A DNA stretch of 32,000 nt, taken from Candidatus Saccharimonadota bacterium. GTDB taxonomy: Bacteria; Patescibacteriota; Gracilibacteria; BD1-5; UBA6164. The position numbers and the translations under genes were made by a program. The stretch spans positions 480,001 to 512,000 of the forward strand of contig OZ245922.1 of the NCBI GenBank assembly GCA_965229705.1, in the 5' to 3' direction. Positions 3,066-27,948 of the stretch are shown in pieces. How positions within the stretch are numbered: the stretch's first letter is position 1; every line of letters starts with the position of its first letter. The notes beneath the pieces were generated by a model. That model saw nothing but the letters and a program-made list of their open reading frames with translations. It was not told the DNA's origin and did not search any database.

Positions 3066-3078
3066 ATCGCGAGTTTTT

Positions 3079-4320: not shown

Positions 4321-4350
4321 AAAAGGTCGTTGGTTTTATACTCTCACTTC

Positions 4351-5655: not shown

Positions 5656-5789
5656 AAGGGAGAAGGAGTTACTATGTAAATAAAGTAAATAGTGTGTCTA
5701 TGCATTTTAGCTCAAAGCATAGATATTGTAAGAGCACATATATATTCAAGAAAAACTATACAACACAAAATAACAAAACTACCTCTCAC

Positions 5790-6980: not shown

Positions 6981-6983
6981 ATG

Positions 6984-7598: not shown

Positions 7599-7664
7599 TT
7601 TTTTACATTTTACAAAAAATTCATATGATTACTGTGAAATATACTTTTTTTCGTATTTTACGCA

Positions 7665-8102: not shown

Positions 8103-8106
8103 GAGA

Positions 8107-8557: not shown

Positions 8558-8586
8558 ATTGTATAAAAATTATAACGATATATTTT

Positions 8587-9486
8587 TTAGTTTTCTAGGG
8601 CTTCAATTCTTGCTTTGAGCTCTTCTATTTGGTTTTGTTGTTCTTTCACAGCTTCAAGTAACACGGCACTAAGTTTGCCATAATCAACGGACTTATAACC
8701 CTCATCATCACTACTAACGATTTGGGGATACACCGTTTCAACTTCTTGAGCGATAACTCCAATTTGTTGACTCTGATCTTTATCGGTATCTTTCCAGTTA
8801 TAGGTTACTCCTCGAAGTTTTTGTAGGTTTGCGAGTGGGTTTTGGAGTTTGGTAATATCGGTCTTGTAACGAGCGTCTGAGGTAGTATAACCACTAGTGA
8901 ATCGCGCTTTACCCGTTACATCCAGTTTATAAGAGGGATTTCTGTTCCCGATTCCAACGTTTCCATCAGTATACACCGCATCATCAGTATCGTCACCATC
9001 GACAAATTTACCGTTAGCAACGCTCGCTGAACTCCAATCTGGAGCTGTAGAGCTCCCTGGACAATTTCCGACACAAGAAGTAGAAATACTTTCTGAACGA
9101 ATACCTCACGCTACATCCAAGAGTTCTTTAGGAGAACTCGTTGATATTCATATATTCCCGGATACCTCATAAATACTTGTAGGCTGAAATATTGAGCCAT
9201 CAAACATTACTAAACTGTCAGTATCTCATGAACTGAACTCATCAAGTATTTTTAAAAAGACATTTCCTATTTTCCCATCTGTTCCAAATACCTTTGCAAT
9301 GATTTCTCACAGTTTTCCTTTTTGTTCTGCCTGAGTTGTTGGCAAGTTTGGATTTACTTGTTGCATATCATTGATACGAGGCTTTGTGAGATCAAAGTCT
9401 TGTTGCGTATCAGCAGCATATGAAAGAGGATTCGATACATGTACCACAAGAGTGCTAACGATACAAAGTGATAATAATAGTTTCAT
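8587..9486 (-). CDS. Secreted protein with a C-terminal peptidase-S74 / tail-fibre intramolecular chaperone domain
   Basis: The signal peptide is MKLLLSLCIVSTLVVHVSNPLSYAAD. The C-terminus reads SDARYKTDITKLQNPLANLQKLRGVTYNWKD...IGVIAQEVETVYPQIV...VDYGKLSAVLLEAVKEQQNQIEELKARIEALEN, which is the typical S74 pattern. The length is 900 nt, in frame with track ORF 8587-8976. Confidence 0.8.
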
Positions 9487-10320: not shown

Positions 10321-11103
10321 ATGAACAAACAATACAATAAAAAAGCTCTCACTTTTGTAGAAATGGTAGTGGTTGTTACCGTTATTTCTATTATAGGGAC
10401 TATCGGTTTTTACAGCTACACAAATAACATATCTACTGCTCAAGACACCGTAAGAGAAACTGATATCTCTGCTCTGCGATCAGAACTCAGTTTATACAAA
10501 CGAGAACGCTGAGCATATCCTTTCCCAGGAGACCACTTCTCCATTACTAATAGAGGATTAGAGGTTGCGTATCAGTGATATATGAATAAAAGCGTTGCTC
10601 TCTCTACAGCAGAAAACCTCCCCTACGATCCCCTCTTAAATATTCCATATATATATTCTACAACTGTAAATAGGCAAGAATATGAGCTTGCAGCAACTCT
10701 CGAAAACAAAGGATCTCAAAAAGCTCTTGTATGATGAGATTATAAATCTGTTGCAAAAAATATTCTCCCTCATATCATTCTTGCCTATAGCGGTCAGAGT
10801 GATATGGAGATAAATAACGACTTTTCTGCAGGAAGCACAAACAGAAAGCTTTTCGTCTTCGACGAATGAACCCATAATCTCGTCTATGACATATACACCG
10901 GTAATCCTTATAGCTCTGGCGTGAGTTTTGATACAAACTTGAATGACGGAAGTGAGTCTTTCTGGCAAAACTCGGATTATCGAAATTGCGATGAGATTGA
11001 GAGTGCTCGAAAAAATATTACTCCTACATGATCTCAAGATGAGTATCAAATACTTGATGATTCTTGAACACTCGTAAACACAAATTGTTCTGGAGTAAAT
11101 TAA
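10321..11103 (+). CDS. Type IV pilin-like protein (prepilin N-terminal methylation motif)
   Basis: The N-terminus is MNKQYNKKALTFVEMVVVVTVISIIGTIGFYSY. The frame continues through seven TGA to TAA at 11101-11103. Total length is 783 nt, in frame with track ORF 10321-10512. Confidence 0.8.
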
Positions 11104-11180
11104 AAAATACCGAAAAAAGGCTTCACAATACTATTCTATAAAAAAATTATTGAAGAAATTGACTTTTTTTCTTCACATTT

Positions 11181-11209
11181 TTGACATTATAAAAAAAATA
11201 TTTTACTAT
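11181..11209 (+). promoter_or_regulatory. Candidate sigma70-type promoter for the 11244 gene
   Basis: TTGACA (11181-11186) is followed by a 17-nt spacer and TACTAT (11204-11209), about 35 nt upstream of the ATG. Confidence 0.35.
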
Positions 11210-11243
11210 CTATAGGTAGTTTGATTTTTATATATTTCGTATT

Positions 11244-12179
11244 ATGTCAGAAAATAAAAAAATAAACCTCTCTGCTCTTTCTCCTCAGTATAAGAAAGAT
11301 GAAAGTATCGTTGAGAATACTCCCTCTCTTGACGCGAAAAATTCTCTATCAAAAGAAAATCTCAAAAACAGTACGGAAAATGATACTGTAAAAACGCCAG
11401 AGACTTCTTCACCTTCTGTAAAAATCTCTCTTTGAAACATTAAGAGTCCTCAAAAAAATGAAAAGCAAGATACAGAGAAACAACAGACTTCAAAAAATTC
11501 TGTAAAAAATGATACTGCAGAAGACGCTCTTCAAGAAAATAAAAGTCTCAAAATTTCTGTGTGAGAAATACAATCAAAAAACCAAAAAGAAAGCACTTGA
11601 TGAGAAAATGCAGAAGAAAAGACGCATACTCTTGCTGAAAATACTCAACACACAGAACAAGCGCAAAGCACTACACAGACTCCCACTCCCCTCTCTCTTT
11701 CAAAAAAATGATCTGCAAGTACAGATAATCAAGATACAGCTCAGCAAGAAACACCAGAAGAGAAATTTGATAACTATGAGTCAAGTTTTGAGAAACAATC
11801 AAATAAGATCAAGCATCGTTTGAAGCATTTTGAGTATAAAAAATATACTCCTTTACGGGCATGATTTACTATTGCTTTTTGTCTGACTGTTATATTTTGA
11901 GGTGTTACTGTCTCATGGCAAAATGGGTATATTCCTGAAAAGTATACTGCCAGTATTATGCGCATGTACTCTGAATCAGAAAATGCTCAAGAAATCGTCA
12001 ATACTCTTTCAGATACTGCATCTCAGATAGGAGAACAAACTCGAGGAATACTATGAGTAAGTTTATACAGTAAGCATGAAAAACTAAAAGATCATCTTAT
12101 AGAAAAACACAAGCAAGAACAGGAAGAAATCAAAAAACAAAAAATCAAAGATCATTTGATTGCGACATATTCGAGTTAA
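11244..12179 (+). CDS. Low-complexity (K/E/Q/T/S-rich) single-pass membrane protein, function unknown
   Basis: One frame runs from 11244 to TAA at 12177-12179 through about 10 TGA. It has one hydrophobic helix, RA(G)FTIAFCLTVIF(G)GVTVSW, and lies between a pilin gene and the pilin-FISUMP array. Confidence 0.6.
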
Positions 12180-12240
12180 GAGGAGTTCTGAAAAATGAAA
12201 ATTTTCTAAGCCTCTCTGGCTCTATCGAGTTCTGATTATG

Positions 12241-12271
12241 AACACCGGGCTTCAGCCCGGTGTTGTTTTTT
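12241..12271 (+). terminator. Intrinsic terminator hairpin
   Basis: The sequence is aacaccgggc-ttca-gcccggtgtt followed by gtttttt. Confidence 0.6.
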
Positions 12272-12296
12272 GGGTGTTTGAGAAAGCTCTGAGTTT

Positions 12297-12332
12297 CAAA
12301 CCCGGGGTATCATACCCCGGGTTTGTTTTTTT
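12297..12332 (+). terminator. Second intrinsic terminator hairpin
   Basis: The sequence is caaacccgggg-tatcata-ccccgggtttg followed by ttttttt. Confidence 0.6.
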
Positions 12333-12393
12333 GAGAAGAACTATATCCACACACAAGATTCTTTCTTGAGTCAACGAAAAAACTCTTGTTCTA

Positions 12394-12441
12394 TTGTATT
12401 TTCGTGAAAAAGAAGTATTTTTCTCTTGGAAAATACTTTCT
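12394..12441 (+). promoter_or_regulatory. Candidate promoter plus conserved inverted repeat upstream of pilin-FISUMP copy 1
   Basis: TTGTAT (12394-12399) is followed by 16 nt and TATTTT (12416-12421). It overlaps the inverted repeat agaagtattttt-ctcttgg-aaaatactttct. The same architecture precedes all four copies. Confidence 0.35.
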
Positions 12442-12454
12442 TAATTATTTCTTT

Positions 12455-13888
12455 ATGAAGCCATCTTTCTTAAAAAAAACTCAGGGTTTTACTCTGGTAG
12501 AACTGATCACGGTAGTGACAATCCTCGCTGTACTCTCTGCTATAGGATTTGTCTCTTTTTCTGGGTATCTCGCAGGAGTACGAGATACCAATAGACTCTC
12601 ACAGCTCACATCTATCTATGACGGTTTAGAGCTCTACGCGACAAAGTATGATCTCCCTATGCCTGATGACGCTGTAGAGATACAAGACGGATCGAGTCTC
12701 TTAGGATACCAAGGAAATATTGGAGCAAATATCCTCGATATCCTCGACTTTAGTCGAGGAGGAGTTGATCCAAAAGATGATTCATATTTTGTGTATTATC
12801 TCTCTGCAGATAAAAGTGATTTTCAGCTTATGGCGTTTCTCGAGGAAGAACAAAATGTTCCAACGGTATTTTTTCCTCAAGCTTATGCAGAAAAAGACTA
12901 TAGCAATCTTTATCCAGTCGTATTTGGAGAAAAGTTAGGAATACTCCTTGATGAGACAACGAAAACTCCAGTCCATGAGATAGAGGCAGTCAAGACTGCT
13001 GGAGCGTTAGATTTAGATGGAAGCACGGAGAGTTATACTGCCTACTTTAAAAATGATGATACCGCAACGGATACAGGAGAAAATCTGTGAGAGACGATAG
13101 AGGAGGAGAGAGAGGAAGGGACGAGTAGTTCGAGTGTTTCGAGTAGTTCAACTACTGCTTCTACTGCGCCTACTGATTGGAGAGATCAAGACCCAAACTG
13201 TGACAGAGCAGATGTGACTATCTGAACACAAACTTGGGCATGATGTAACTCGACTCTGGGAACATGATTTGAGTTTTGACAAAAAGATGCGGATATAGGA
13301 ACGAATAATTATAGTGGATCGGTAGGTAGTTGTTACAACTATAACGGAAACAATTCCGCCACTTGTATCAAGTGAGACATAACGATGGCGAGTACCTCTA
13401 AAGCCAATGATTGGTTTACCGGAACGAATAATGATGGAGATACTGCCGTAGATAATATATGGGGAAAGTTCTACACTTGGGATTCTCTCGATACTGATAA
13501 TGATGATGATATAGACGCAAATGATACCAACCTCGTCTGTTGAGTGTGATACCATGTACCAAGTGAACTCGAATGGGAAACACTGGAAGAATACTTGAAT
13601 GGATCAGCTTGTAGAACTACAAGTAATTGACAATGCGACTGACAGTGATGGCAGTACCACTCAACGACTAATAGTGATAGCAGTATTGCTGCTCTCCTAC
13701 AGATTCCTTTGAGTGGTTGGAGGAGTAATAATACATTCAATAGTCGTGGGTACTATGGGTATCTATGGTCTAGTACGGTAAATGGATCTGAGGCTTATAG
13801 GAGAGGATTCAGTAATCTCTATACTACTGTTGATAGTAACAATCGTACACAATCGAATTGATATTCAGTCAGATGTATCAAGGATTAG
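12455..13888 (+). CDS. Type IV pilin N-terminal module fused to a FISUMP (Fibrobacter succinogenes major paralogous, TIGR02145-like) domain, copy 1
   Basis: The protein starts MKPSFLKKTQ-G|FTLVELITVVTILAVLSAIGF, followed by a 211-aa TGA-free pilin module and a boundary TGA (13088-13090). The linker is ETIEEEREEGTSSSSVSSSSTTASTAPTDW. The FISUMP part reads VTI(G)TQTWA(G)CNS...IWGKFYTWD...C(G)V(G)YHVPSELEWETLEEYL...LWSSTVNGS...SN(G)YSVRCIKD, ending at TAG 13886-13888. Confidence 0.9.
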
Positions 13889-13894
13889 GTATAA

Positions 13895-13925
13895 AATCCC
13901 GGGCTTCAGCCCGGGATTGTTTTTG
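13895..13925 (+). terminator. Intrinsic terminator after copy 1
   Basis: The sequence is aatcccgggc-ttca-gcccgggatt followed by gttttt. Confidence 0.65.
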
Positions 13926-13951
13926 GGGATTGCTCTGTACTCTAGAGAAAG

Positions 13952-14040
13952 CTCTGAGAAACAAAAAATTTCTCATCCTCTCTGGCTCTCACGAGCCATC
14001 TCTCCTTTGCAAAAGGAGAGAGAAAAGGAGTTTCTCAGAG
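13952..14040 (+). repeat. Structured intergenic repeat ('E element'), complete copy
   Basis: The outer stem is ctctgagaaac/gtttctcagag. It encloses the hairpins ggctc-tcac-gagcc and tctctcctt-tgca-aaggagaga. Confidence 0.7.
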
Positions 14041-14145
14041 CCTGTTTAACCCCGGGGTTGTTTTTTTAAGAAGAACTATATCCACACACAAGATTCTTTC
14101 TTGAGTCAACGAAAAAACTCTTGCTCTATTGTATTTTCGTGAAAA

Positions 14146-14176
14146 AGAAGTATTTTTCTCTTGGAAAATACTTTCT
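14146..14176 (+). promoter_or_regulatory. Conserved inverted repeat upstream of copy 2
   Basis: This is the same sequence as 12411-12441, offset by 1735 nt. Confidence 0.3.
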
Positions 14177-14189
14177 TAATTATTTCTTT

Positions 14190-15629
14190 ATGAAGTCATC
14201 TTTCTTAAAAAAAACTTAGGGTTTTACTCTGGTAGAACTGATCACGGTAGTGACTATCCTTGCTGTACTTGCAGCTATAGGATTTGTCTCTTTTTCTGGG
14301 TATCTCGCAGGAGTACGAGATACCAATAGGCTTTCTCAACTTACATCTATCTATGACGGTTTAGAGCTCTACGCGACAAAGTATGATCTGCCTATGCCTG
14401 ATGACGCTGTAGAGATACAAGACGGATCGAGTCTCTTAGGATACCAAGGAAATATAGGAGCAAATATCCTCGATATCCTCGACTTTAGTCGAGGAGGAGT
14501 TGATCCAAAAGATGATTCATATTTTGTGTATTATCTCTCTGCAGATAAAAGTGATTTTCAGCTTATGGCATTTCTCGAGGAAGAACAAAATGTTCCAACG
14601 GTATTTTTTCCTCAGGCATATGCCGATAAAGACTATAGTAATCTTTATCCAGTCGTATTTGGAGAAAAGTTAGGAATACTCCTTGATGAGACAACGAAGA
14701 CTCCCGTTCATGAGATAGAGGCAGTCAAGACGGCTGGAGCGTTAGATTTAGATGGAAGCACGGAGAGTTATACTGCCTACTTTAAAAATGATGATACCGC
14801 AACGGATACAGGAGAAAATCTATGAGAGACGATAGAGGAGGAGAGAGAGGAAGGGACGAGTACTTCGAGTGTTTCGAGTAGTTCAACGACTGCTTCTACT
14901 GCTCCTACAGACTGGAGAGCTCAAGACCCAAATTGTGACAGAGCAGATGTGACTATCTGAACACAGACGTGGGCATGATGTAACTCGACGCTGGGAACAT
15001 GATTTGAGTTTTGACAAAAAGATGCGGATATAGGAACGAATAACTATAGTGGGACGGTAAGTAGTTGTTACAACTATAACGGAAACAATTTCACTTGTAT
15101 CAAGTGAGACATAACGATGGCGAGTACCTCTAAAGCCAATGATTGGTTTACTGGAACGAATATATATGGAGATACTGCCGTAGATAATATATGGGGAAAG
15201 TTCTACACTTGGGATTCTCTCGATACGGATAATGATAATGATATAGACGCAAATGATACGAACCTTGTATGTTGAGTGGGATACCATGTACCAAGTAGAG
15301 CAGAATGGGAAACACTCGAAGAATACTTGAATGGATCAAATTGTAGAACTTCAGACAGTGATAGTTTCCAGTGTAAATGACAGTGATGGACGTACCACTC
15401 AACGACTAATAGTGATACAAGTATTGCCTCAGTCCTCCAGATTCCTCTGAGTGGTTGGAGTAATAGTAGTAAAACATTCTATGGTCGTGGGTACAATGGG
15501 TCTCTATGGTCTAGTACGGTAAATGGATCTAATGCTTATAGAAGATATTTTGCGTATAATAATACCCAAGTCTATAGTGACGATGTTTCACAATCGAATT
15601 GACATTCAGTCAGATGTATCAAGGATTAG
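14190..15629 (+). pseudogene. Pilin-FISUMP copy 2, interrupted by a TAG nonsense codon at codon 10
   Basis: The gene reads ATG AAG TCA TCT TTC TTA AAA AAA ACT TAG GGT TTT ACT CTG GTA GAA. The TAG at 14217-14219 replaces the CAG (Gln) found in the other three copies. The rest of the 480-codon frame is intact through TGA codons down to TAG at 15627-15629. Confidence 0.7.
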
Positions 15630-15697
15630 GGATTTTTGAACGCCGGGGTGTAGCCTGGAGTTTTCTTTTTGGGGATTGCTCTGTACTCTAGAGAAAG

Positions 15698-15787
15698 CTC
15701 TGAAAAACAAAAAATTTCTCATCCTCTCTGGCTCTAAACTAGCCATCTCTCCTTTGCAAAAGGAGAGAGAAAAGGAGTTTCTCAGAG
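15698..15787 (+). repeat. E element, complete copy
   Basis: The architecture matches 13952-14040. The small hairpin variant is ggct-ctaaac-tagcc, and the outer stem has one A/C mismatch. Confidence 0.7.
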
Positions 15788-15794
15788 TCTGTTT

Positions 15795-15828
15795 AACCCC
15801 GGGGTATGATACCCCGGGGTTGTTTTTT
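15795..15828 (+). terminator. Intrinsic terminator hairpin
   Basis: The sequence is aaccccgggg-tatgata-ccccggggtt followed by gtttttt. Confidence 0.6.
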
Positions 15829-16035
15829 GGGTGTTTAGAGAAAAGAGAGAAAACAGTTTTCCCCTCCCTTACCAAGGGAGGGGCTAGGGGAGGGTTATAC
15901 TTCTAGAGAGAGTTCTGAGTTTAAGTTTGAACCCCGGGCTACAGCCCGGGGTTCAAACTTAAAACAGTATACAAAGCATACTTCATACCTTTTCGCAAGA
16001 GATATTTTTCGCTTTTTTTCAAAAAATCTATTAAC

Positions 16036-17310
16036 ATGAAAATAATATTAAGAAGTAGTAAAAATATGACAGTAAATGATAAATACTCTGAAGTATGAGA
16101 AATGAAAATGCAAGAAAATCTCTGAGATGTCGTAGAGTACGTTGCATCTATTTTTAAGAATGCTATAGATTTTTGAGCTTCTGATATTCATATAGAACCC
16201 ACACAGCACTTTTTGCTGATTCGTTTTCGACAAGATGGGGATTTTCACATGATTGATAAAGTACATCTTGATAACGCCTCTGCAATTATTACTAGACTCA
16301 AGGTACTCTCAAAAATCAAGATAGATGAAAATAAAAAACCTCAAGACGGAAAAATCGTATACGAATACGAAAACTCTCAAGATCACAGCAAAGAACATAT
16401 AGATATTCGTCTCTCCACTCTTCCAACAAATTATGGAGAAAAAATCGTGATGCGTATTCTCAAACAGGATGACTCTCTCACAAATATTGAAGCGCTCGGA
16501 CTCATAGATGTCAATGTAGAAAAAGTACGCGAAGCGCTCAAAAGTAAATATGGAATTGTATTAGTTGCTGGTCCAACAGGGTCAGGAAAATCAACCACGC
16601 TTTTTGGAGTTCTCAAACACTTTAATCCTCTCGAGTACAATATATCAACTCTCGAAGATCCAATAGAATACGATATTGAGTATGTAAATCAATCTCAGGT
16701 ACATCCATGAATTGATTATACCTTCGCCTCTGGACTGAGGAGTCTCGTACGTCAAGATCCCGATATCATTATGGTATGAGAAATCCGTGATAAAGAAACG
16801 GCAACTCTCGCTGTAGAAGCCGCACTTACTGGACACCTCGTACTTTCTACGATTCATACCAACTCTGCAACCGCAACAATTCAAAGACTTATTAATATGT
16901 GAGTAGAACCATTTTTGCTTGCAAGTGCTATGAAGATGGTTATATCTCAAAGACTCTGAAAAAGACTCTGTAAAAACTGTAAGGTTCCTGAAGAACTCAG
17001 TGATTTTAAGAAAAAAAAGGTACACTCATACCTTGATAGTATTATGGATCCAAAAGAAGTAGACTCTATTGTTTTCTATAAAGCTGAGTGATGTGAAGTA
17101 TGCCATAACTCATGATATAAATGACGACTCGGAATACATGAGGTACTGATAATAGAAGAATACATCGAACCCATGATCCTCGCAGAAGAAAGTGCTACCA
17201 GTATACAAAGAGAAGCAATGCAGCACGGCATGATCACTATTGTACAAGATGCTCTCTTAAAAGCAGCTATCTGAAATACGAGTCTTGATGAAGCATTTAA
17301 ACTTATTTAA
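16036..17310 (+). CDS. pilB: Type IV pilus assembly ATPase PilB/GspE family, short form, copy 1
   Basis: Motifs are [29 protein letters not shown](G)[16 protein letters not shown], and CxxC...CHNS(G)YK(G)RLGIHEVL. The length is 1275 nt, in frame with track ORF 16213-16710. Confidence 0.9.
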
Positions 17311-17315
17311 AAACT

Positions 17316-17642
17316 ATGTTTGGAAGAGGAAAAAAAGTAAATTTTAAAGATATAAAAAACTTTCGCGATGCCGTGAGAGCTATAAGATGATATATCTATC
17401 TTTCTGAGTGGGTCAAAGCAAATACTGCTATTACTGAACTAGAAGACAAAGAAAAAGCTGCCTTTGAGGAGCTAGAACATCATCTAAAAAATGATTATAC
17501 AGAACTACAAAAACAGAAAAAAAAGTACGAGAAAAATAGATCTGAGGCTTATAGGAGAACTTTTTGGCATGAGAGTACCAACGTCCTTAGTAACGATTCT
17601 CCACAATCGAATTGATTTTCAGTCAGATGTATCAAGGATTAG
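17316..17642 (+). pseudogene. Chimeric junction ORF: codons 1-76 of the PP2C/SpoIIE gene fused in frame to the last 32 codons of a FISUMP domain
   Basis: The product reads MFGRGKKVNFKDIKNF...KKKYEKNRS|EAYRRTFWHESTNVLSNDSPQSN(G)FSVRCIKD*. It diverges from the full-length gene after 'aatagatctg' (17544 versus 23174). The FISUMP copies carry 'aatggatctg' at the equivalent point. Confidence 0.7.
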
Positions 17643-17648
17643 GTATAA

Positions 17649-17678
17649 AATCCCGGGCTGAAGCCCGGGATTGTTTTT
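17649..17678 (+). terminator. Intrinsic terminator hairpin
   Basis: The sequence is aatcccgggc-tgaa-gcccgggatt followed by gttttt. Confidence 0.6.
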
Positions 17679-17705
17679 GGGGATTGCTCTGTACTCTAGA
17701 GAAAG

Positions 17706-17780
17706 CTCTGAGAAACAAAAAATTTCTCATCCTCTCTGGCTCTCACGAGCCATCTCTCCTTTGCAAAAGGAGAGAGAAAA
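17706..17780 (+). repeat. E element, 3'-truncated copy
   Basis: The 5' outer arm and both inner hairpins are present. The 3' arm is replaced by cggtgttcccctctc..., consistent with a deletion between gagagaaaa direct repeats. Confidence 0.6.
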
Positions 17781-17962
17781 CGGTGTTCCCCTCTCTTCGC
17801 GTATAAGAGACCAGTCTCGAAAATGAATGTTTGTTTGAGTCTTGAGTAGCAACCCCGGACTGAAAAACTCCGAGTTGCTTTTGTAAAAGAGCTATATTCA
17901 CACACTAGAGTCTTTGCTGAGTCAAGTAAAAATCCTGTAAGTCATTGCGTTTTCCACAAAAG

Positions 17963-17990
17963 GAAGTATTTTCCTCTTGAGAAATACTTC
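17963..17990 (+). promoter_or_regulatory. Conserved inverted repeat, with a candidate -10 box, upstream of copy 3
   Basis: The repeat is gaagtattt-tcctcttgag-aaatacttc, preceded by TTGCGT, 16 nt and TATTTT. Confidence 0.3.
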
Positions 17991-18004
17991 TTTAACATTT
18001 CTTT

Positions 18005-19453
18005 ATGAAGTCATCTTTCTGTAAAAAAACTCAGGGTTTTACTCTGGTAGAACTGATCACGGTAGTAACAATCCTCGCTGTACTCTCTGCTATAGGATTT
18101 GTCTCTTTTTCTGGGTATCTCGCAGGAGTACGAGATACCAATAGACTTTCTCAACTTACATCTATCTATGACGGTTTAGAGCTCTACGCGACAAAGTATG
18201 ATCTGCCTATGCCTGATGACGCTGTAGAGATACAAGACGGATCGAGTCTCTTAGGATACCAAGGAAATATTGGAGCAAATATCCTCGATATCCTCGACTT
18301 TAGTCGAGGAGGTGTTGATCCCAAAGATGATTCATATTTTGTGTATTATCTCTCTGCAGATAAAAGTGATTTTCAGCTTATGGCGTTTCTCGAGGAAGAA
18401 CAAAATGTTCCAACGGTATTTTTTCCTCAGGCATATGCCGATAAAGACTATAGTAATCTTTATCCAGTCGTATTTGGAGAAAAGCTTGGAATACTCCTTG
18501 ATGAGACAACGAAGACTCCTGTTCATGAGATAGAGGCAGTCAAGACGGCTGGAGCGTTAGATTTAGAGGGAGACACAACGAGTTATACTGCCTACTTTAA
18601 AAATGATGATACCGCAACGGATACAGGAGAAAATCTGTGAGAGACGATAGAGGAGGAGAGAGAGGAAGGGTCGAGTACTTCGAGTGTTTCGAGTAGTTCA
18701 ACGACTGCTTCTACTGCTCCTACAGACTGGAGAGCTCAAGACCCAAATTGTGACAGAGCAGATGTGACTATCTGAACACAGACGTGGGCATGATGTAACT
18801 CGACGCTAGGAGCATGACTTGAGTGGTGACAAACAGATGCGGATATAGGGACAAATAATTATAGTGGATCGGTAGGTAATTGTTATGATTATAATGGAAA
18901 CTACATAGATACAAGTAACTGTACTGCATGAGATATAACGATGGCAAGCAACTCAAAGGCTAATGACTGGTTTACTGGAACGAATAATAATGGAGATACT
19001 GCCGTAGATAATATATGGGGAAAGTTCTATACTTGGGATTATCTCGATACAGATAATGATAACGATATAGACGCAGATGATACGAACCTCGTATGTTGAG
19101 TGGGATACCATGTACCAAGTAACAGTGAATGGGAAACACTCGAAGAATACTTGAATGGATCAAATTGTAGAACTTGAAATGGTTACCAGTGTGACTGACA
19201 GTGATGGACGTACCACTCAACAACGAATAGTAATACAAGTATTGCCTCAGTCCTCCAGATTCCTCTGAGTGGTTATCGTACTGATCTTGATAATAAAACA
19301 TTCTATCATCGTGGGAGATATGGGTATCTATGGTCTAGTACGGTAAATGGATCTAAGGCTTATAGAAGAATGTTCACTTATAATAGTACCGAAGTCTATA
19401 GCGGCGATACTTCACAATCTGCTTGATATCCAGTCAGATGTATCAAGGATTAG
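18005..19453 (+). CDS. Pilin-FISUMP fusion, copy 3
   Basis: It starts MKSSFCKKTQ-G|FTLVEL. The pilin module is track ORF 18005-18640, with the boundary TGA at 18638-18640. The FISUMP domain contains 10 further TGA and ends ...SA(G)YPVRCIKD at TAG 19451-19453. Confidence 0.9.
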
Positions 19454-19459
19454 GTATAC

Positions 19460-19489
19460 AATCCCGGGCTGAAGCCCGGGATTGTTTTT
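19460..19489 (+). terminator. Intrinsic terminator hairpin after copy 3
   Basis: The hairpin is the same as at 17649, offset by 1811 nt. Confidence 0.6.
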
Positions 19490-19516
19490 GGGGATTGCTC
19501 TGTACTCTAGAGAAAG

Positions 19517-19591
19517 CTCTGAGAAACAAAAAATTTCTCATCCTCTCTGGCTCTCACGAGCCATCTCTCCTTTGAAAAAGGAGAGAGAAAA
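19517..19591 (+). repeat. E element, 3'-truncated copy
   Basis: It matches 17706-17780 at an offset of 1811 nt, with the loop variant tgaa instead of tgca. Confidence 0.6.
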
Positions 19592-19773
19592 CGGTGTTCC
19601 CCTCTCTTCGCGTATAAGAGACCAGTCTCGAAAATGAATGTTTGTTTGAGTCTTGAGTAGCAACCCCGGACTGAAAAACTCCGAGTTGCTTTTGTAAAAG
19701 AGCTATATTCACACACTAGAGTCTTTGCTGAGTCAAGTAAAAATCCTGTAAGTCATTGCGTTTTCCACAAAAG

Positions 19774-19801
19774 GAAGTATTTTCCTCTTGAGAAATACTT
19801 C
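19774..19801 (+). promoter_or_regulatory. Conserved inverted repeat upstream of copy 4
   Basis: It is identical to 17963-17990. Confidence 0.3.
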
Positions 19802-19815
19802 TTTAACATTTCTTT

Positions 19816-21264
19816 ATGAAGTCATCTTTCTGTAAAAAAACTCAGGGTTTTACTCTGGTAGAACTGATCACGGTAGTAACAATCCTCGCTGTACTCTCTG
19901 CTATAGGATTTGTCTCTTTTTCTGGGTATCTCGCAGGAGTACGAGATACCAATAGGCTTTCTCAACTTACATCTATCTATGATGGTTTAGAGCTCTACGC
20001 GACAAAGTATGATCTGCCTATGCCTGATGACGCTGTAGAGATACAAGACGGATCGAGTCTCTTAGGATACCAAGGAAATATAGGAGCAAATATTCTCGAT
20101 ATCCTCGACTTTAGTCGAGGAGGTGTTGATCCCAAAGATGATTCATATTTTGTGTATTATCTCTCTGCAGATAAAAGTGATTTTCAGCTTATGGCATTTC
20201 TCGAGGAAGAACAAAATGTTCCAACGGTATTTTTTCCTCAGGCATATGCCGATAAAGACTATAGTAATCTTTATCCAGTCGTATTTGGAGAAAAGCTTGG
20301 AATACTCCTTGATGAGACAACGAAGACTCCTGTTCATGAGATAGAGGCAGTCAAGACGGCTGGAGCGTTAGATTTAGAGGGAGACACAACGAGTTATACT
20401 GCCTACTTTAAAAATGATGATACCGCAACGGATACAGGAGAAAATCTGTGAGAGACGATAGAGGAGGAGAGAGAGGAAGGGTCGAGTACTTCGAGTGTTT
20501 CGAGTAGTTCAACGACTGCTTCTACTGCTCCTACAGACTGGAGAGCTCAAGATCCTAATTGTGACAGAGCAGATGTGACTATCTGAACACAGACTTGGGC
20601 ATGATGTAACTCGACGCTAGGAGCATGACTTGAGTGGTGACAAACAGATGCGGATATAGGGACGAATAACTATAGTGGGACAATAAGCGCTAATCAAGGT
20701 TGTTATAATTACGGAAATACTTCTTGAGTAGCTTGTACCAAGTGAGATATAACGATGGCGAGTACCTCTAAAGCCAATGATTGGTTTACCGGAACGAATA
20801 CATATGGAGATACTGCCGTAGATAATATATGGGGAAAGTTCTACACTTGGGATTCTCTCGATACGGATAATGATAACGATATAGACGCAAATGATACGAA
20901 CCTTGTATGTTGAGTGGGATACCATGTACCAAGTGAACTCGAATGGGAAACACTGGAAGAATACTTGAATGGATCAGCTTGTAGAACTACAAGTAATTGG
21001 CAATGCCACTGACAGTGATGGAAGTACCACTCAACGACAAATAGTGATAGGAGTATAGCAGCATTATTACAAATTCCTCTGAATGGTTATAGGAGTAGTA
21101 GTAGTAAAACATTCTATACTCGTGGGAACTATGGGTATCTATGGTCTAGTACGGTAAATGGATCTAATGCTTATAGAAGATATTTTTGGTATAATAGTAC
21201 CAACGTCGCTAGTGACGATGTTCCACAATCGTATTGACTTTCAGTTAGGTGTATCAAGGATTAG
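19816..21264 (+). CDS. Pilin-FISUMP fusion, copy 4
   Basis: The pilin module protein is identical to copy 3 (track ORF 19816-20451). The FISUMP domain is divergent and ends ...SY(G)LSVRCIKD at TAG 21262-21264. Confidence 0.9.
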
Positions 21265-21270
21265 GTATAA

Positions 21271-21300
21271 AATCCCGGGCTTCAGCCCGGGATTGTTTTT
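21271..21300 (+). terminator. Intrinsic terminator after copy 4
   Basis: The sequence is aatcccgggc-ttca-gcccgggatt followed by gttttt. Confidence 0.65.
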
Positions 21301-21327
21301 GGGGATTGCTCTGTACTCTAGAGAAAG

Positions 21328-21417
21328 CTCTGAGAAACAAAAAATTTCTCATCCTCTCTGGCTCTAAACTAGCCATCTCTCCTTTGCAAAAGGAGAGAGA
21401 AAAGGAGTTTCTCAGAG
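21328..21417 (+). repeat. E element, complete copy
   Basis: The outer stem ctctgagaaac/gtttctcagag is perfect. Otherwise it is identical to 15698-15787. Confidence 0.7.
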
Positions 21418-21665
21418 TCTGTTTAACCCCGGGGTATGATACCCCGGGGTTGTTTTTTGGGTGTTTAGAGAAAAGAGAGAAAACAGTTTTCCCCTCCCTT
21501 ACCAAGGGAGGGGCTAGGGGAGGGTTATACTTCTAGAGAGAGTTCTGAGTTTAAGTTTGAACCCCGGGCTACAGCCCGGGGTTCAAACTTAAAACAGTAT
21601 ACAAAGCATACTTCATACCTTTTCGCAAGAGATATTTTTCGCTTTTTTTCAAAAAATCTATTAAC

Positions 21666-22940
21666 ATGAAAATAATATTAAGAAGTAGTAAAAATATGAC
21701 AGTAAATGATAAATACTCTGAAGTATGAGAAATGAAAATGCAAGAAAATCTCTGAGATGTCGTAGAGTACGTTGCATCTATTTTTAAGAATGCTATAGAT
21801 TTTTGAGCTTCTGATATTCATATAGAACCCACACAGCACTTTTTGCTGATTCGTTTTCGACAAGATGGGGATTTTCACATGATTGATAAAGTACATCTTG
21901 ATAACGCCTCTGCAATTATTACTAGACTCAAGGTACTCTCAAAAATCAAGATAGATGAAAATAAAAAACCTCAAGACGGAAAAATCGTATACGAATACGA
22001 AAACTCTCAAGATCACAGCAAAGAACATATAGATATTCGTCTCTCCACTCTTCCAACAAATTATGGAGAAAAAATCGTGATGCGTATTCTCAAACAGGAT
22101 GACTCTCTCACAAATATTGAAGCGCTCGGACTCATAGATGTCAATGTAGAAAAAGTACGCGAAGCGCTCAAAAGTAAATATGGAATTGTATTAGTTGCTG
22201 GTCCAACAGGGTCAGGAAAATCAACCACGCTTTTTGGAGTTCTCAAACACTTTAATCCTCTCGAGTACAATATATCAACTCTCGAAGATCCAATAGAATA
22301 CGATATTGAGTATGTAAATCAATCTCAGGTACATCCATGAATTGATTATACCTTCGCCTCTGGACTGAGGAGTCTCGTACGTCAAGATCCCGATATCATT
22401 ATGGTATGAGAAATCCGTGATAAAGAAACGGCAACTCTCGCTGTAGAAGCCGCACTTACTGGACACCTCGTACTTTCTACGATTCATACCAACTCTGCAA
22501 CCGCAACAATTCAAAGACTTATTAATATGTGAGTAGAACCATTTTTGCTTGCAAGTGCTATGAAGATGGTTATATCTCAAAGACTCTGAAAAAGACTCTG
22601 TAAAAACTGTAAGGTTCCTGAAGAACTCAGTGATTTTAAGAAAAAAAAGGTACACTCATACCTTGATAGTATTATGGATCCAAAAGAAGTAGACTCTATT
22701 GTTTTCTATAAAGCTGAGTGATGTGAAGTATGCCATAACTCATGATATAAATGACGACTCGGAATACATGAGGTACTGATAATAGAAGAATACATCGAAC
22801 CCATGATCCTCGCAGAAGAAAGTGCTACCAGTATACAAAGAGAAGCAATGCAGCACGGCATGATCACTATTGTACAAGATGCTCTCTTAAAAGCAGCTAT
22901 CTGAAATACGAGTCTTGATGAAGCATTTAAACTTATTTAA
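21666..22940 (+). CDS. pilB: Type IV pilus assembly ATPase PilB/GspE family, copy 2
   Basis: As far as I can read it, the nucleotide sequence is identical to 16036-17310. Confidence 0.9.
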
Positions 22941-22945
22941 AAACT

Positions 22946-24844
22946 ATGTTTGGAAGAGGAAAAAAAGTAAATTTTAAAGATATAAAAAACTTTCGCGATG
23001 CCGTGAGAGCTATAAGATGATATATCTATCTTTCTGAGTGGGTCAAAGCAAATACTGCTATTACTGAACTAGAAGACAAAGAAAAAGCTGCCTTTGAGGA
23101 GCTAGAACATCATCTAAAAAATGATTATACAGAACTGCAAAAGCAGAAAAAAAAGTACGAGAAAAATAGATCTGTGATCATCCAACTCAAAAAAGAATAT
23201 GAAGTAAAAAAAATCAAGTATGAGAGAAAAATATCCTCAGAAAAATTTCATGTTCGCTTTGATAGTATCAAGAAAGAAATAGAAAAACTTTCTCTTGAGT
23301 GAGACGGTACAGAAGCACTCGCTGCACTCACATCTTTTTTTGAAGAAAACAAAAACAACTATCAAGTAGTTTTATATTACGCCAGAGAAAAGAAGAGAAT
23401 TGCGAAAAATATGAAAAAACAGGATATTTTTAAAAAGAAGAAAAAAAAGCAAAGTACCGAACTTGAGGCTCTCAGGCTTGCGGGAATCACACTGAAAAAT
23501 CAAAAAATTGCCGAACAAGAAAAAGAAAAACAAATAAAAGAAAACCAACAAAACTCATTTTTTTGACGTATAAGAGAATCGATAAATTTTCATAAAAAAC
23601 TCAAAGCAAAATATAGAGAAAAACAACTCCTCGATGAGATTCGACTCCTCACCGAAGAAAGCTCTAAGGTAAAGCAAGATATTGCCAAGCAAAAACTCTC
23701 TCATATGCATCAATGACTGATTAAAGAAATAGAGAAAAATCATCTCATAGGTTTTGATCTCTACGGAAAAATACTTGGTTCTGACAAGATATCTGGAGAC
23801 TGCTTTGGTATGTATGAAAGTAAGGAGAAATATAGCTTTTATATGGGAGATGCTACAGGACACTGAGTACAGGCATGACTCATCGTATCGATACTCTCAA
23901 AAACTTTTACAGAACAAGCACGAAAAGATGATATTGTGAATCTGGTATATCAGATAAATAATACTCTGAAAGAGTCTCTTCAGTCAAAGCACTTTATTAC
24001 AGGAATGATATTTGAGATAGATAAAAAGTATAAAAATATCGTCAATATTGCAGGAATGTGACATGAACCACTTCTGATATATAGAGCTGAAACAAAAACT
24101 GTTGAAAAGTTTATCGCTGGAGGACTAGCAGCCGGTATTCGATACATCAAAAAACCGGAAGATATCAAACCAAAACCTGTTGAAATACATGATGGAGATA
24201 TTTTTATGAGTTATAGTGACGGGGTCATAGAGACAAAAAATGCTGAGTGAAACATCTATACGATTGATAAACTTGCTGAAACTCTTTGAAGAGTAGCTCC
24301 AGAAGCAAAAGATATTAAAGATCTCTACAGTCTCATTATGCAAGATGTAGAAGCTCATAGATGATGAACAAAGTTTGATGATGATGCAAGTATTTTTATC
24401 TTTTCACGAAACTCAGAAAAAGATCTCCTCACCGAATGATCTGAGGAACTATCAAGTGTTGCCCAAAAAGAAGGGTTTACCATGAAAGATATGAAATCTC
24501 TGGAATGAAAAAGAAAAGTAGAACTCAAAGAAGAGGTAGAGAAAATCAAACATGAAAAAAAGCTTGATAGTATTATCAATTCCCTCAAAGGACATTACTA
24601 TACTGGTGAGTATCTCAAACTCAAAGAAGAAGCAACAAGATATGTAAAAGAAGGTTTTGTACATGAAAAAATTAATTTTTACCTCAAAAAAGCACTTGAA
24701 AATGAGGATAACTATAAAATATCTCAAAAAAATACAAAGATGAGTAATAAATATATGGTTCTCCAAGAACTCTATAAAAAGAAAGAATACACCAGCGTTA
24801 TACAAGAGTGTAATGAAATAATTGCCAAAGATGGAAATATTTAA
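22946..24844 (+). CDS. Coiled-coil protein with a PP2C/SpoIIE-type serine phosphatase domain
   Basis: The domain reads ...ISGDCFGMYESKEKYSFYMGDATGH(G)VQA(G)LIVSILSK...ITGMIFEIDKKY...IAGM(G)HEPLLIY...IFMSYSDGVIETKN...FDDDASIFIF. The length is 1899 nt from ATG 22946 to TAA 24842-24844. Confidence 0.8.
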
Positions 24845-24864
24845 TTTTTAGAAATAGTAATAAT

Positions 24865-26085
24865 ATGGCTTTTTTCCAAAGATGATTTTTTGATAGAGCA
24901 GGAAACTTTGATAACACCAAAATCATAGCTCTTTTAAAGCAGGCACAAAAAGCCCAACTGAGAGCAGAGGTTGGGAAGAAAGCTATGGGTTCTTCTGAAA
25001 TACTGCTTTTTGCATCTACCACACAAAAAGATGTATGGGGGTTTATCAACAAATTCTCTATCTTTATTAACTCAGGGATTGATATAAAGTGAGCTCTTGC
25101 CATACTCGTAAAGCAGTCAAAAAATCCTCTGATGAAAAAAATCGTTATGGAGATGAGAACCAATATCGACCATGGTATTGCTCTACATGAAACTATGATG
25201 CAATACCCAAAAGTATTTGATGCTCTTACAACAGCTCTGATAGAAGTATGAGAAAAAACCGGTCAGCTCTGAAAAATCCTTGCAGAACTTGATACAAATC
25301 TCCTAGAAAGTATTGAACTCAAAGGAAAAGTAAAATGAGCAATGGTATATCCGATGATACTTCTTGGTCTAACAATATGTATGGTCGTATTTATGATGAT
25401 TTTTATTGTCCCACGAATTACCGAATCATTTGAAAAAGCAGGAGCCCAGCTCCCTGCAATGACACAATTTGTCGTAAATGTCTCAAACTTTCTGACAAAT
25501 GATTATCTCACTATAGGAGCTATTTTGATATTTTTATGGATTGGTATAAAAATTACGAAATCTACTTATATTGGAAGATTCTTTTTTGCAAAAATGGCAG
25601 TCAATCTTCCAGTATTTTGATATGTCGTAAAACAGTCAAATATTATATACTTTATCAAATCTTTTACAATACTTCTAGATGCGTGAGTACTCTTACTTGA
25701 TTCTATCAAAACAGCATCAAAGGTTGTTCCCAATCTCTTATATAAAAAAGAAGTCATTCGTATAAAAAATGAGGTAGAGATAGGTATCACCATCTCCAGA
25801 TCTCTTGGTCTCAATCTTGAGTATGAAACCAATGTATATATGAATAAGCTCTTTTCTGAAGAGTTTGCCTATGTTGTCAGTACCTGAGAAGAAACAGGGA
25901 CACTTTCAGCTTCTCTACAAAAAATATGAAGAAACTACAATAGTGAGCTCAAGAGATATATATGAAACATATCTTCGATGATGGAACCAATTATTATTGT
26001 TATCGTATGATTCCTCGTTGGTACCATTGTTGTTGCCATTATGCTCCCCTTCTTTCAGATGTGAGAGGTCGCAAAAAACTTATAG
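24865..26085 (+). CDS. pilC: Type IV pilus platform protein PilC/GspF family
   Basis: There are two GspF-type repeats, (G)ALAILVKQSKNPLMKKIVMEMRTNIDHGIALHETM and LLD.IKTASKVVPNLLYKKEVIRIKNEVEIGITISRSL, plus three TM segments. It is in frame with track ORF 25342-25620. The stop is TAG at 26083-26085. Confidence 0.9.
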
Positions 26086-26108
26086 TATAGGAAACTAAGG
26101 CAAACCAA

Positions 26109-26141
26109 AAGCAAGAAGAAAAACCTTGCTTGTTTTGTGTT
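26109..26141 (+). terminator. Terminator-like hairpin after pilC
   Basis: The sequence is aagcaag-aagaaaaac-cttgctt followed by a T-rich tract. Confidence 0.4.
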
Positions 26142-26235
26142 TCACGAGCTTATGAGTACCGTAGTTACGGTTTATGAAAATAAACCTTAAGTTTCAAAAC
26201 TTAATTGTATTTTATTTCTTGTAATGTTTCTTTAT

Positions 26236-26802
26236 ATGAAAAACATACAAAAAGGGTTTACCCTCGTGGAACTCATCGTCGTGATTACGATTCTTGCGAT
26301 TCTTGGTACTATTGCGTTTATCTCTCTTCAAGGACACTCTCAGGACGCAAAAAACTCTAAGGTAGCTTCAGATATCCGAAGTCTTGGTACTTCTGTTGAG
26401 ACAAAGCTTACTAACGGTTCTGTAACTCTTGGAACACTTGTGAGTGGTGATCTCTCATCCACAAACGCTGTAACAGGTACTTTTGGTGGTGCAACAAGTA
26501 CTCTTGGTACAGATGGGACATATAATGTTGGAACTCTCAACTTTGTTGGTCTCAAACAAAATGGTGAAGACTTTAAAGATAACTCTGGTAATGATTATAT
26601 TGCTGCTGTTGCTGTTGATGGAAGTGATAAGGCATACTACCAAATCGTTGGTCAAACTTCTAACCCAGATGGCAGCTATACTGCGGTTATAAAAGGAAAC
26701 TACTTTGCTGCCGATGCAAGTGATGTTGCTGGTCTTGTTTCAGCAAGTACTGATACTACTCCACTCACAAACAACGCTATTCACAAAGATGGTCTCTACT
26801 AG
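26236..26802 (+). CDS. pilA: Type IV pilin without a fused domain; probable major pilin
   Basis: It starts MKNIQK-G|FTLVELIVVITILAILGTIAFISLQG and has a Gly/Thr/Ser-rich C-terminal part. There is no in-frame TGA despite about 25 Gly codons. A strong terminator follows immediately. The track start at 26224 adds four residues (MFLY). Confidence 0.85.
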   Translation: MKNIQKGFTLVELIVVITILAILGTIAFISLQGHSQDAKNSKVASDIRSLGTSVETKLTNGSVTLGTLVSGDLSSTNAVTGTFGGATSTLGTDGTYNVGTLNFVGLKQNGEDFKDNSGNDYIAAVAVDGSDKAYYQIVGQTSNPDGSYTAVIKGNYFAADASDVAGLVSASTDTTPLTNNAIHKDGLY

Positions 26803-26812
26803 TATTTTTCTT

Positions 26813-26856
26813 GAAATACAAAAAAAACACCCTAAAGGTGTTTTTTTTTGTATTTC
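26813..26856. terminator. Bidirectional intrinsic terminator between convergent pilA and pilT
   Basis: The sequence is gaaatacaaaaaaaacacc-ctaaa-ggtgtttttttttgtatttc, a stem of about 19 bp with A/T tracts on both sides. Confidence 0.7.
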
Positions 26857-26865
26857 AGAGATTCT

Positions 26866-27948
26866 TTAATAGAGAGCCTCTTTTACTAGTTTCACATTAT
26901 TCGCAAACTTCATTCCTTCTTGAGCAGATATCTGATTTTTTGCTATAAGATCAACGATTTCATCTTCTAAGAGACACATACCTTCTTTTCGTCACATTTG
27001 CATAGTTGTCGGTATTTGGTGTATCTCATTTTCACGAATAAGGTTGGCAACGGCATCATTATTGAGCATGATTTCTTTTACCATCACTACTCCTGTTCCA
27101 TTAATATTTTTTAAGAGTCGCTGAGAAAATACGGCAATCAGAGAACTTGAGAGATTTTTTCGCATCTGATCTCTCTCTCCTTCAGGAAACACGTCAACAA
27201 TACGTGATATAGTCTGCGCTGCTCAACGGGTATGCAAAGTAGAAAGAACTAGTTGCCCAGTCTCTGCAAGAGTCAGTGCCATTTCTATCTCTTGGCGAGT
27301 CTTCATCTCTCAAAATAAGATAATATTTGGAGCCTGACGCATTGATCCTATAAGCGCTGTATTGTAGTCTGGAACATCTCTTCCTATCTCTTTTTGTTCA
27401 AAAATAGAATTCTTGTGACTATGCACAAACTCAATAGGATCCTCTATCGTGATAATATGCTTTTTTTGATACGTATTCACATAGTTGAGCATCGCTGCAA
27501 GAGTCGTTGTTTTTCATGATGATGTAGGACCTGTTACAAGTATGAGTCCATGTCCCCTATCCATAACATCTCTATAAATATCTGGAAGCCCAAGCTCGTC
27601 AAGGCTTGGTACTTCTGACTGAAGCAGCCTCAGCACTATCATGTACTCTCCCATCTGAAATGATATATTTCCTCGAAATCGTGAACCTCAAAAACTAAAT
27701 GCAAAATCAAGATTTTTATCTCGCAGGAGTTCCTCACGCTGTTTCTCGTCTATGATTGACTCTGTAAGTTCAAGAGTGTCTTGTGATGTCAGTTTTTTAA
27801 CTCACTCATCAACTGAAATGATTTCTCCAAATATCCTGATAGCTGGGTGTGTGCCTACTGTGAGGTACATATCACTCCCGTGATTATCTATCATCACATG
27901 GAGGAGTTGATCTCTGAGTATGTAGTCAGATCGTATTGCTGTATCCAT
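26866..27948 (-). CDS. pilT: Twitching-motility / pilus retraction ATPase PilT
   Basis: Motifs are MDTAIRSDY...GSDMYLTVG, Walker A LVTGPTSS(G)KTTT, HIITIEDPIEF, PNIILF(G)EM and LVLSTLHTR(G)AAQTISRIVDVFP. Track ORFs 26992-27192 and 27310-27492 are in the same frame. The stop is TAA at 26866. Confidence 0.9.

Follow-up and report, generated by a model that had tools for sequence, protein, structure and literature searches.

How did a type IV pilus locus come to hold two identical copies of pilB, the gene for the pilus assembly ATPase, and are both copies really there? This question is raised by the stretch of DNA analyzed here, positions 480,001 to 512,000 of contig OZ245922.1 (assembly GCA_965229705.1). 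The window, by which we mean this whole stretch of 32,000 nt and whose first letter is position 1 of all coordinates below, is by its genes a type IV pilus locus on a Candidatus Gracilibacteria chromosome. It carries an array of genes for pilins that end in a FISUMP domain (pilin-FISUMP genes, copies 1 to 4), and within this array a 1.88-kb block containing pilB occurs twice. A first-pass annotation had placed the block in a simple tandem unit of 5.63 kb. Our analysis favors a different account. We consider it probable, at roughly 0.7, that the structure is real and that it arose by microhomology segmental duplication of the 1.88-kb pilB segment into the modular-pilin array.

A near-perfect repeat containing pilB

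Self-comparison of the window places the two copies of the block at 15666-17544 and 21296-23174 on the forward strand. They are 1,879 nt long, lie in direct orientation at a constant offset of 5,630 nt and are 99.84% identical. The first-pass annotation had put them at 15669-17544 and 21299-23174, coordinates that are right to within 3 nt, and its count of only three mismatches is borne out (positions 15704, 17507 and 17513). A perfect run of 1,802 nt occupies 15705-17506, and beyond the limits of the block identity drops to background within a few bases. Chance cannot be the source of a match of this length. All three mismatches lie no more than 39 nt from an edge of the block, an arrangement that has a probability of 7e-5 if mismatches are placed uniformly.

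The contents listed in that annotation could all be located in both copies: an E element (15698-15796 and 21328-21426, forward strand), three hairpins (in the first copy at 15794-15822, at about 15860-15879 and at 15920-15963), an intact pilB of 424 aa and codons 1-76 of a PP2C phosphatase gene. These codons occupy 17316-17544 in the first copy and match 22946-23174 in the second, where they open an intact PP2C gene. The two ATPase genes, pilB-1 (16036-17310, forward strand) and pilB-2 (21666-22940, forward strand), encode identical proteins, which would be about 410-414 aa long if a later Met is the start. At lower identity the repeat is wider. Positions 14057-17544 and 19685-23174 agree over 3.5 kb at 95.1%, and this longer match sets pilin copy 2 plus pilB-1 against pilin copy 4 plus pilB-2.

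Two pilin-FISUMP genes had been described as bracketed by the blocks, and we find them at 18005-19453 and 19816-21264. Self-comparison also recovers the tandem periodicities of 1735 nt and 1811 nt reported beside them. The view that the locus records nested rounds of duplication stands in part. The block within the 1,735- and 1,811-nt periodicities does record several rounds of duplication or recombination, but a simple tandem 5.63-kb unit is not what the sequence contains. Near-identity is confined to the last 1.88 kb of the notional unit, the adjoining pilin genes are mosaic and 65-99% identical, and self-comparison gives no match between 11915-12290 and 17545-17920.

A chimeric junction and a relic pilin gene

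The left edge of the near-perfect part (15666) lies just past the private terminator hairpin of each pilin gene. From this edge onward, all five spacers of the array are 95-99% identical, and this shared part is the E element. A derived hairpin variant, GGCTCTAAACTAGCC, together with a second terminator, is common to spacers 2 and 4 only.

The right edge, at 17544/17545, is a join across a microhomology of 10 of 11 nt (AAATAGATCTG against AAATGGATCTG). With a slash at the point of joining, the PP2C gene reads ...GAAAAATAGATCTG/TGATC, the pilin tails read ...GTAAATGGATCTG/AGGCTTATAGG, and the junction reads ...GAAAAATAGATCTG/AGGCTTATAGG. The product is a chimeric open reading frame (ORF) of 108 codons (17316-17642, forward strand) in which, by the junction and tail alignments, PP2C codons 1-76 (17316-17544) are in frame with the last 32 codons of a putative relic fifth pilin (17545-17642). 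Alignment of the tails shows 16-24 differences between this 98-nt segment and each of the tails of copies 1-4. Because it is distinct from all four other tails, we take it to be the remnant of a distinct fifth pilin gene that was otherwise destroyed.

Comparison with related loci

For comparison we used 80 species-representative loci and one metagenome contig, annotated in genetic code 25. A second pilB within 10 kb is absent from all 81 related loci, and the pilB duplication is unique among them. A core of pil260, unk311, pilB, PP2C, pilC, pilin and pilT is conserved where contigs are long enough. In the window, with all genes on the forward strand except the last, the core begins with pil260 (10321-11103), a pilin-like gene with a weak T2SSG match whose homologue lies upstream of pilB in 43 related loci. 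It continues with unk311 (11244-12179), a gene of unknown function with no Pfam match that by synteny lies directly upstream of pilB in the closest relatives (L001-L009 and L081). Beyond the array and the two pilB genes follow the intact SpoIIE-type PP2C phosphatase gene (22946-24844, 632 aa; PF07228, E = 2e-31, and synteny), pilC for the T2SSF platform protein (24865-26085, Pfam match), a short pilin gene (26224-26802, 192 aa; N_methyl match and synteny) that has no TGA codon and is a candidate for the major pilin, and a gene for a PilT-like retraction ATPase on the reverse strand (26866-27948; partial PF00437 match and synteny).

In the closest relatives, whose pilB is 74-79% identical to that of the window, unk311 abuts pilB with no pilin-FISUMP gene between them. 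Between pil260 and pilB, 28 of 43 loci have a gap of 0.9-1.7 kb; in the window, pilB-1 lies 4.9 kb and pilB-2 10.5 kb away from pil260. Since a few distant relatives carry FISUMP-like genes in the pil260-pilB slot, this slot appears to be a variable region. Locus L082 (907-5068), from elsewhere in the genome of a related organism, has three pilins in tandem, all with the same pilin module. Identity between two of them is 95% in the spacer and the first ~770 nt, after which they continue into unrelated fibrinogen-like (YCD..GGGW) C-terminal modules. We read this arrangement as module swapping on a constant carrier, the same design as that of the window array. Searches for the same lineage in metagenomes gave no match to the exact junction-adjacent pattern in contigs and none in a scan with the pilin-FISUMP protein.

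Two observations in the related loci touch the pilus locus more broadly. Locus L022 has three copies of pil260 upstream of pilB (1424-9100), and tandem expansion within the pilus locus therefore seems to recur in the group. In nearly all of the 81 loci that are long enough to show the neighboring genes, pilB and pilC are separated by a SpoIIE-type PP2C gene of about 630 aa, and this conserved position suggests lineage-wide phospho-regulation of the pilus machine.

Modular pilins with a homogenized carrier and a mosaic effector

The four pilin-FISUMP genes lie on the forward strand. Domain matches (N_methyl and Fib_succ_major) and alignments identify copy 1 (12455-13888, 477 aa), copy 3 (18005-19453, 482 aa) and copy 4 (19816-21264, 482 aa) as intact modular pilins, and copy 2 (14190-15629) as full length with a stop at codon 10. 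Each protein comprises a class III leader (KKTQG/FTLVE, with the cleavage site at the slash), a pilin module, a Ser/Thr linker and a Fib_succ_major domain. The signal peptide, MKSSFCKKTQG/FTLVELITVV..., in which the leader ends in Gly and a hydrophobic helix with Glu5 follows, gives an N_methyl match (PF07963, E = 3e-6), and the extra C-terminal domain is recognized after the Ser/Thr-rich linker as Fib_succ_major (PF09603, E = 1e-18, residues 254-481). As predicted proteins, they match modular type IV pilins as defined in PMC8179133. The FISUMP domain is probably lectin-like. The predicted structure of a homologue, P0129, shows a long alpha-1 helix with a beta-sheet, a disordered linker and a confident C-terminal domain with a mean pLDDT (predicted local distance difference test) of 79. 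Foldseek searches with this model returned pilins and C-type-lectin-like proteins at E >= 0.28 and no significant match in the PDB.

The two halves of these genes differ in their history. The first 900 nt and the spacers are 91-100% identical among the copies; the last ~600 nt are 65-99% identical, in patches. At the 61 parsimony-informative sites the three possible groupings of the copies are clustered, with 13 consecutive sites of the 14/23 pattern, and among 200,000 permutations a single one showed so few pattern switches. Synonymous divergence (dS) between copies 3 and 4 rises from 0.03 in the pilin module to 0.37 in the FISUMP half, compared with zero differences in the 1,802-nt core that contains pilB. 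The ratio of nonsynonymous to synonymous divergence (dN/dS) among the copies spans 0-0.23 for the pilin module, against 0.31-0.51 for the FISUMP half. This is the pattern of gene conversion: the 5' halves, which form the carrier module, and the spacers appear to evolve in concert, and the FISUMP halves, which form the effector module, appear to hold older, recombining mosaic diversity. Divergence among the copies peaks at the C-terminal end of the FISUMP domain. Because diversity-generating retroelements (DGRs) diversify the same region in this class of domain, the variable end suggests a ligand-binding surface under diversifying retention.

In copy 2, a single CAG-to-TAG change at codon 10 (14217-14219) stands directly before the Gly of the cleavage site, and the rest of the gene is intact. 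Its pilin module has a dN/dS of 0.05 relative to copy 1. Copy 2 is either a pseudogene of very recent origin or a silent copy that gene conversion keeps from decaying.

Genetic code and the pilus machinery

The genes of this locus are intact only under genetic code 25, in which TGA encodes Gly. Translation with table 11 gives a longest ORF of 234 aa in 32 kb and fragments every gene, and this reading was rejected. Long ORFs cover 7.7 kb with TGA as a stop and 50.7 kb with TGA as a sense codon, and no such rise is seen with TAG or TAA reassigned. TGA codons 248, 289, 352, 360 and 363 of pilB align with the Gly residues of VGEIRD, MGVEPF, GCxxC and GYKGR, which are conserved in both displayed PilB/GspE structures. 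Because these codons fall on conserved Gly residues, we assign code 25 and reject code 4. TAG is a genuine stop and terminates 10 of the 19 genes in the window. Two public protein entries on a contig of 1,006,762 bp, P0121 and P0122, are code-4 translations of pilin copies 2 and 1 that start at an internal Met and have Trp in place of Gly. The locus must be read in code 25; tools that use table 11 fragment its genes. The nearest pilB proteins are annotated as Candidatus Gracilibacteria, and the best match is only 83% identical.

The assignment of PilB is supported by a PF00437 match over residues 27-421 (E = 1.3e-117) and by matches to PDB 6olj (PilB, E = 7e-100) and 4pht (GspE, E = 9e-100). 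The protein has a Walker A motif, a GEIRD box and a tetracysteine motif (CKNC...GCEVC) aligned with those of the PDB homologues, and the Gly residues of these motifs are partly TGA-encoded. The N-terminal regulatory domains (GSPII / MshEN) of PilB proteins of 566-588 aa are not present, and the alignment covers about residues 190-582 of 6olj. We regard the protein as a short-form PilB; its Gracilibacteria homologues are also about 410 aa long. A scan for sigma-70-type promoters showed no enrichment over shuffled sequence (56 found, 46 expected).

Two further sets of genes lie to the left of the array. A reverse-strand gene at 8587-9486 encodes a 299-aa protein with a C-terminal Peptidase_S74 intramolecular-chaperone domain and is next to minor-pilin-like genes at 6984-7598 and 7665-8102. 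The Peptidase_S74 domain is typical of phage tail-fiber and endosialidase-like proteins. At 567-3065, also on the reverse strand, is a gene for an 832-aa TrwB/TraD-like coupling ATPase (g832) with a HerA/DUF87 core and a Lys/Glu-rich tail, which is also found near the pilus locus in L031, L042 and L067.

Structured elements of the spacers

Outside the two blocks, E elements lie on the forward strand in the spacer between copies 1 and 2 (13952-14049, preceded by terminator T1 at 13895-13918), in the spacer between the relic and copy 3 (17706-17803, a variant with a type-B 3' end) and in the spacer between copies 3 and 4 (19517-19614, also with a type-B 3' end). Further sites are at 12186 (partial) and 31013 in the window, at 782-888 in L082, and at 7395-7499 (reverse strand) and 2023-2099 in L083. 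The element is about 110-130 nt long, with a 12-bp outer stem around two hairpins, and its predicted fold is stable (z = -2.3 to -5.6); compensatory changes are seen in only 3 of 35 pairs. In relatives it occurs at the pilin array of L082 and beside smpB/serS in L083. From its occurrence beside housekeeping genes in a relative, we take the E element to be a dispersed structured repeat of the lineage and not a pilus-specific site. It may act as portable homology for recombination. The spacers contain no RNA family or tRNA at the Rfam gathering score, and permissive settings returned only sub-threshold hairpin matches.

Hairpins that resemble intrinsic terminators are enriched in 11000-27000, where 28 were found and 8.2 expected. 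Every pilin gene has its own terminator, and the stems vary in sequence yet still pair (CCGGGG..CCTGG in one, CCCGGGC..GCCCGGG in another). An imperfect palindrome, AAAGAAGTATTTT..AAAATACTTTCTT, stands 12-45 nt upstream of every pilin-FISUMP start (12409-12442, 14144-14177, 17960-17993 and 19771-19804) and also upstream of the related pilins of L082, at about 2277-2309 and 3698-3730. It could be an operator or a hairpin of the 5' untranslated region (5'-UTR).

Proposed history of the duplication

We propose that the lineage built a modular pilin array in the slot between unk311 and pilB, and that the 1.88-kb segment comprising the E element, pilB and PP2C codons 1-76 was then copied once more, in direct orientation, into this array. 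The copy would have begun in the E homology of the copy 2 spacer, for which the ~130-nt E repeat shared by all spacers offers a possible homologous anchor. It would have ended by an illegitimate microhomology jump into the tail of the fifth pilin gene, replacing the body of that gene and leaving its last 32 codons. Either a replication template switch or homology-facilitated illegitimate recombination could have produced such a structure in a single recent event with one homologous and one microhomology end. The order and mechanism of these steps are inferred from the present sequence. Because a single event explains the abrupt boundaries of identity, the relic tail and the near-perfect identity of the copies, the one-step history is the most economical. 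As consequences, the dosage of pilB would be doubled, a functionless chimeric ORF would have been produced, and the locus would have gained direct repeats of 1.9-3.5 kb, between which RecA-type recombination could remove copies 3 and 4 or multiply them.

The proposed event is of a standard kind. Segmental duplications that arise through microhomology (template switching or microhomology-mediated break-induced replication, MMBIR) or through homology-facilitated recombination have the same direct orientation, a chimeric junction with about 10 nt of microhomology, one end within a pre-existing repeat, and near-identical copies that differ only at the edges. Nothing essential sets the present case apart from them; its mechanism is deduced from one sequence. 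Microhomology duplication, concerted evolution of paralogues and modular pilins are each already known.

Several points weigh against this reading. The copy number and the perfect identity of the interior rest on one assembly, and polishing of the consensus over a repeat that had not been resolved would likewise leave mismatches at the edges only. The one-step history requires an ancestral fifth pilin gene of which only 98 nt are left. The promoter scan gave no excess over shuffled sequence, and a single genome leaves a tandem duplication followed by gene conversion standing as a variant.

Alternative explanations

In the variant just mentioned, which is close to the model of the first-pass annotation, an older tandem duplication reached from a pilin tail to PP2C codon 76, after which unequal crossing-over remodeled the array and continuing gene conversion kept pilB identical and left the FISUMP halves diverse. 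The junction leads from a downstream site (codon 76 of PP2C) back to an upstream one (in a pilin tail), as tandem duplications classically do, the sequence GATCTG/AGGCTTATAGGAGA is common to the relic and copy 1 only, and mismatches confined to the edges fit conversion tracts of the kind that the mosaic pilin array shows to occur. The units, however, match only in pilB: copies 2 and 4 are 69-99% identical in patches, their 5'-UTR types differ (73%), and the first half is without a type-B spacer. Because the rest of the notional unit does not match, this history needs several extra events. Both histories yield the same present structure, and we slightly prefer the one-step duplication; the tandem history is possible but somewhat doubtful. 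We think it unlikely that the duplication is an assembly artefact, in which the contig would have joined or duplicated strain variants (for example, a haplotype with copies 1 and 2 plus pilB and another with copies 3 and 4 plus pilB), or over-expanded a repeat, in a genome that has one pilB. Repeats of 1.9-3.5 kb are difficult for short-read assemblers, the interior is perfect and the mismatches lie at most 39 nt from unique flanks, as if reads could not be phased within the repeat, and metagenome searches did not find an independent sequence of the lineage. The right edge is nevertheless a novel junction whose similarity of 10 of 11 nt is too short for a k-mer or overlap mis-join, and which keeps the reading frame and leaves a pilin tail unlike those of all four other copies. 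The two halves have different spacer and 5'-UTR types and are not allelic, and the source contig of ~1.0 Mb is at the scale of a Gracilibacteria chromosome (complete genomes among the matches span 1.05-1.49 Mb), which suggests an assembly of high contiguity.

Other explanations bear on what the array does. Recombinational repertoire switching is a plausible hypothesis. That the array is a working, programmed switching device of a host-attachment pilus in an episymbiotic or predatory cell strikes us as improbable. Such a device would hold lectin-like FISUMP tips as tandem cassettes, with copy 2 as a silent donor; conversion between the homogenized flanks would shuffle the FISUMP domains, and recombination across the pilB repeats would switch copies 3 and 4 in or out, altering what the pilus binds. 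The FISUMP half is indeed where the mosaic conversion tracts concentrate, a single nonsense change silences copy 2, whose pilin module nevertheless has a dN/dS of 0.05 against copy 1, the most variable part is the C-terminal FISUMP end that DGRs diversify in Fib_succ_major/CLec2 targets (PMC5758913), and modular pilins are known adhesins (PMC8179133). Against such a device, the dN/dS of the FISUMP half is 0.31-0.51 overall and not above 1, and all copies have their own upstream region and terminator and so resemble ordinary expressed paralogues more than silent cassettes. No dedicated recombination machinery or site was found in the window, a duplicated pilB would be unnecessary for such a system, and the case draws on one sequence. 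A DGR, with the FISUMP C-termini as variable regions and the orphan 98-nt tail (17545-17642) as template repeat, is highly improbable. Fib_succ_major is a recognized class of DGR target, DGRs are documented in genomes of the candidate phyla radiation (CPR; PMC5758913), and the orphan tail looks like a non-coding copy of a variable end. Yet whichever candidate template is chosen, its adenines account for only 15-36% of the mismatches, 20 adenines are invariant in all five tails, A is missing from every copy in 14 of the 37 variable columns, 24 gap columns occur in the variable region, and no reverse transcriptase is present among the 19 proteins scanned in the 32-kb window. The adenine pattern, the indels and the missing reverse transcriptase refute a DGR for the copies of this window. 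Integron cassettes were rejected as well: the window has no integrase or recombinase, the outer stem of the E element (GAGAAAC...GTTTCTC) is unlike the RYYYAAC / GTTRRRY cores of attC, and the element also occurs beside housekeeping genes. An inversion switch or a mobile element was likewise rejected, as the inverted repeats are local terminator palindromes within direct copies and the window contains no transposase.

Relation to known systems and significance

Modular type IV pilins such as PilB (vWA) and PilC (lectin) of Streptococcus sanguinis (PMC8179133) share with the pilins of this locus the class III signal peptide, the pilin module, the linker and a bulky C-terminal domain of non-pilus type, which the filament is expected to present for binding. 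A survey counted more than 1,200 modular pilins, CPR phyla included (Raynaud et al. 2021, PMC8179133). The present case differs in its FISUMP (PF09603) effector and in its tandem arrangement of four copies and one relic with homogenized pilin modules and mosaic effectors; adhesion and incorporation into the pilus are here predicted from sequence. The array also recalls pilE/pilS of Neisseria, where several pilin copies occupy one locus, transfer of the 3' part is mosaic, the 5' part is constant and at least one copy cannot be expressed. Mosaic gene-conversion tracts of the Neisseria type are present in the window, but silent donors without promoter and 5' coding part are not. In Neisseria, the pilS copies lack a promoter and are truncated, and a G-quadruplex (G4) element together with a small RNA at pilE drives conversion. 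In the window, each of the four copies has its full length, a conserved upstream region and a terminator of its own, and a point mutation has silenced copy 2 only; for this locus the parallel is drawn from DNA letters. A third likeness is to Fib_succ_major/DUF1566 (CLec2) proteins diversified by DGRs, such as LdtA of Legionella (Wu et al. 2018, PMC5758913), which belong to the same domain family and vary at the C-terminal end. In contrast to those systems, there is no reverse transcriptase in the window, no template-variable pair and no adenine-specific pattern, and diversity appears to be stored as paralogues and reshuffled by recombination. Were the array a switching device, a binding surface that is diversified elsewhere by retroelements would here be diversified by recombination.

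Copy numbers at this locus should be trusted only once its repeat structure has been verified with long reads. The junction at 17544/17545 and the predicted deletion junction are targets for asking whether recombination varies the attachment specificity of bacteria of the candidate phyla. Provided that the assembly is correct, the locus combines an expanding array of pilins with probably lectin-like tips and a very recent, mechanistically readable duplication that would double the pilus assembly ATPase. It would then be a natural example of a reduced, host-dependent bacterium remodeling its main surface organelle.

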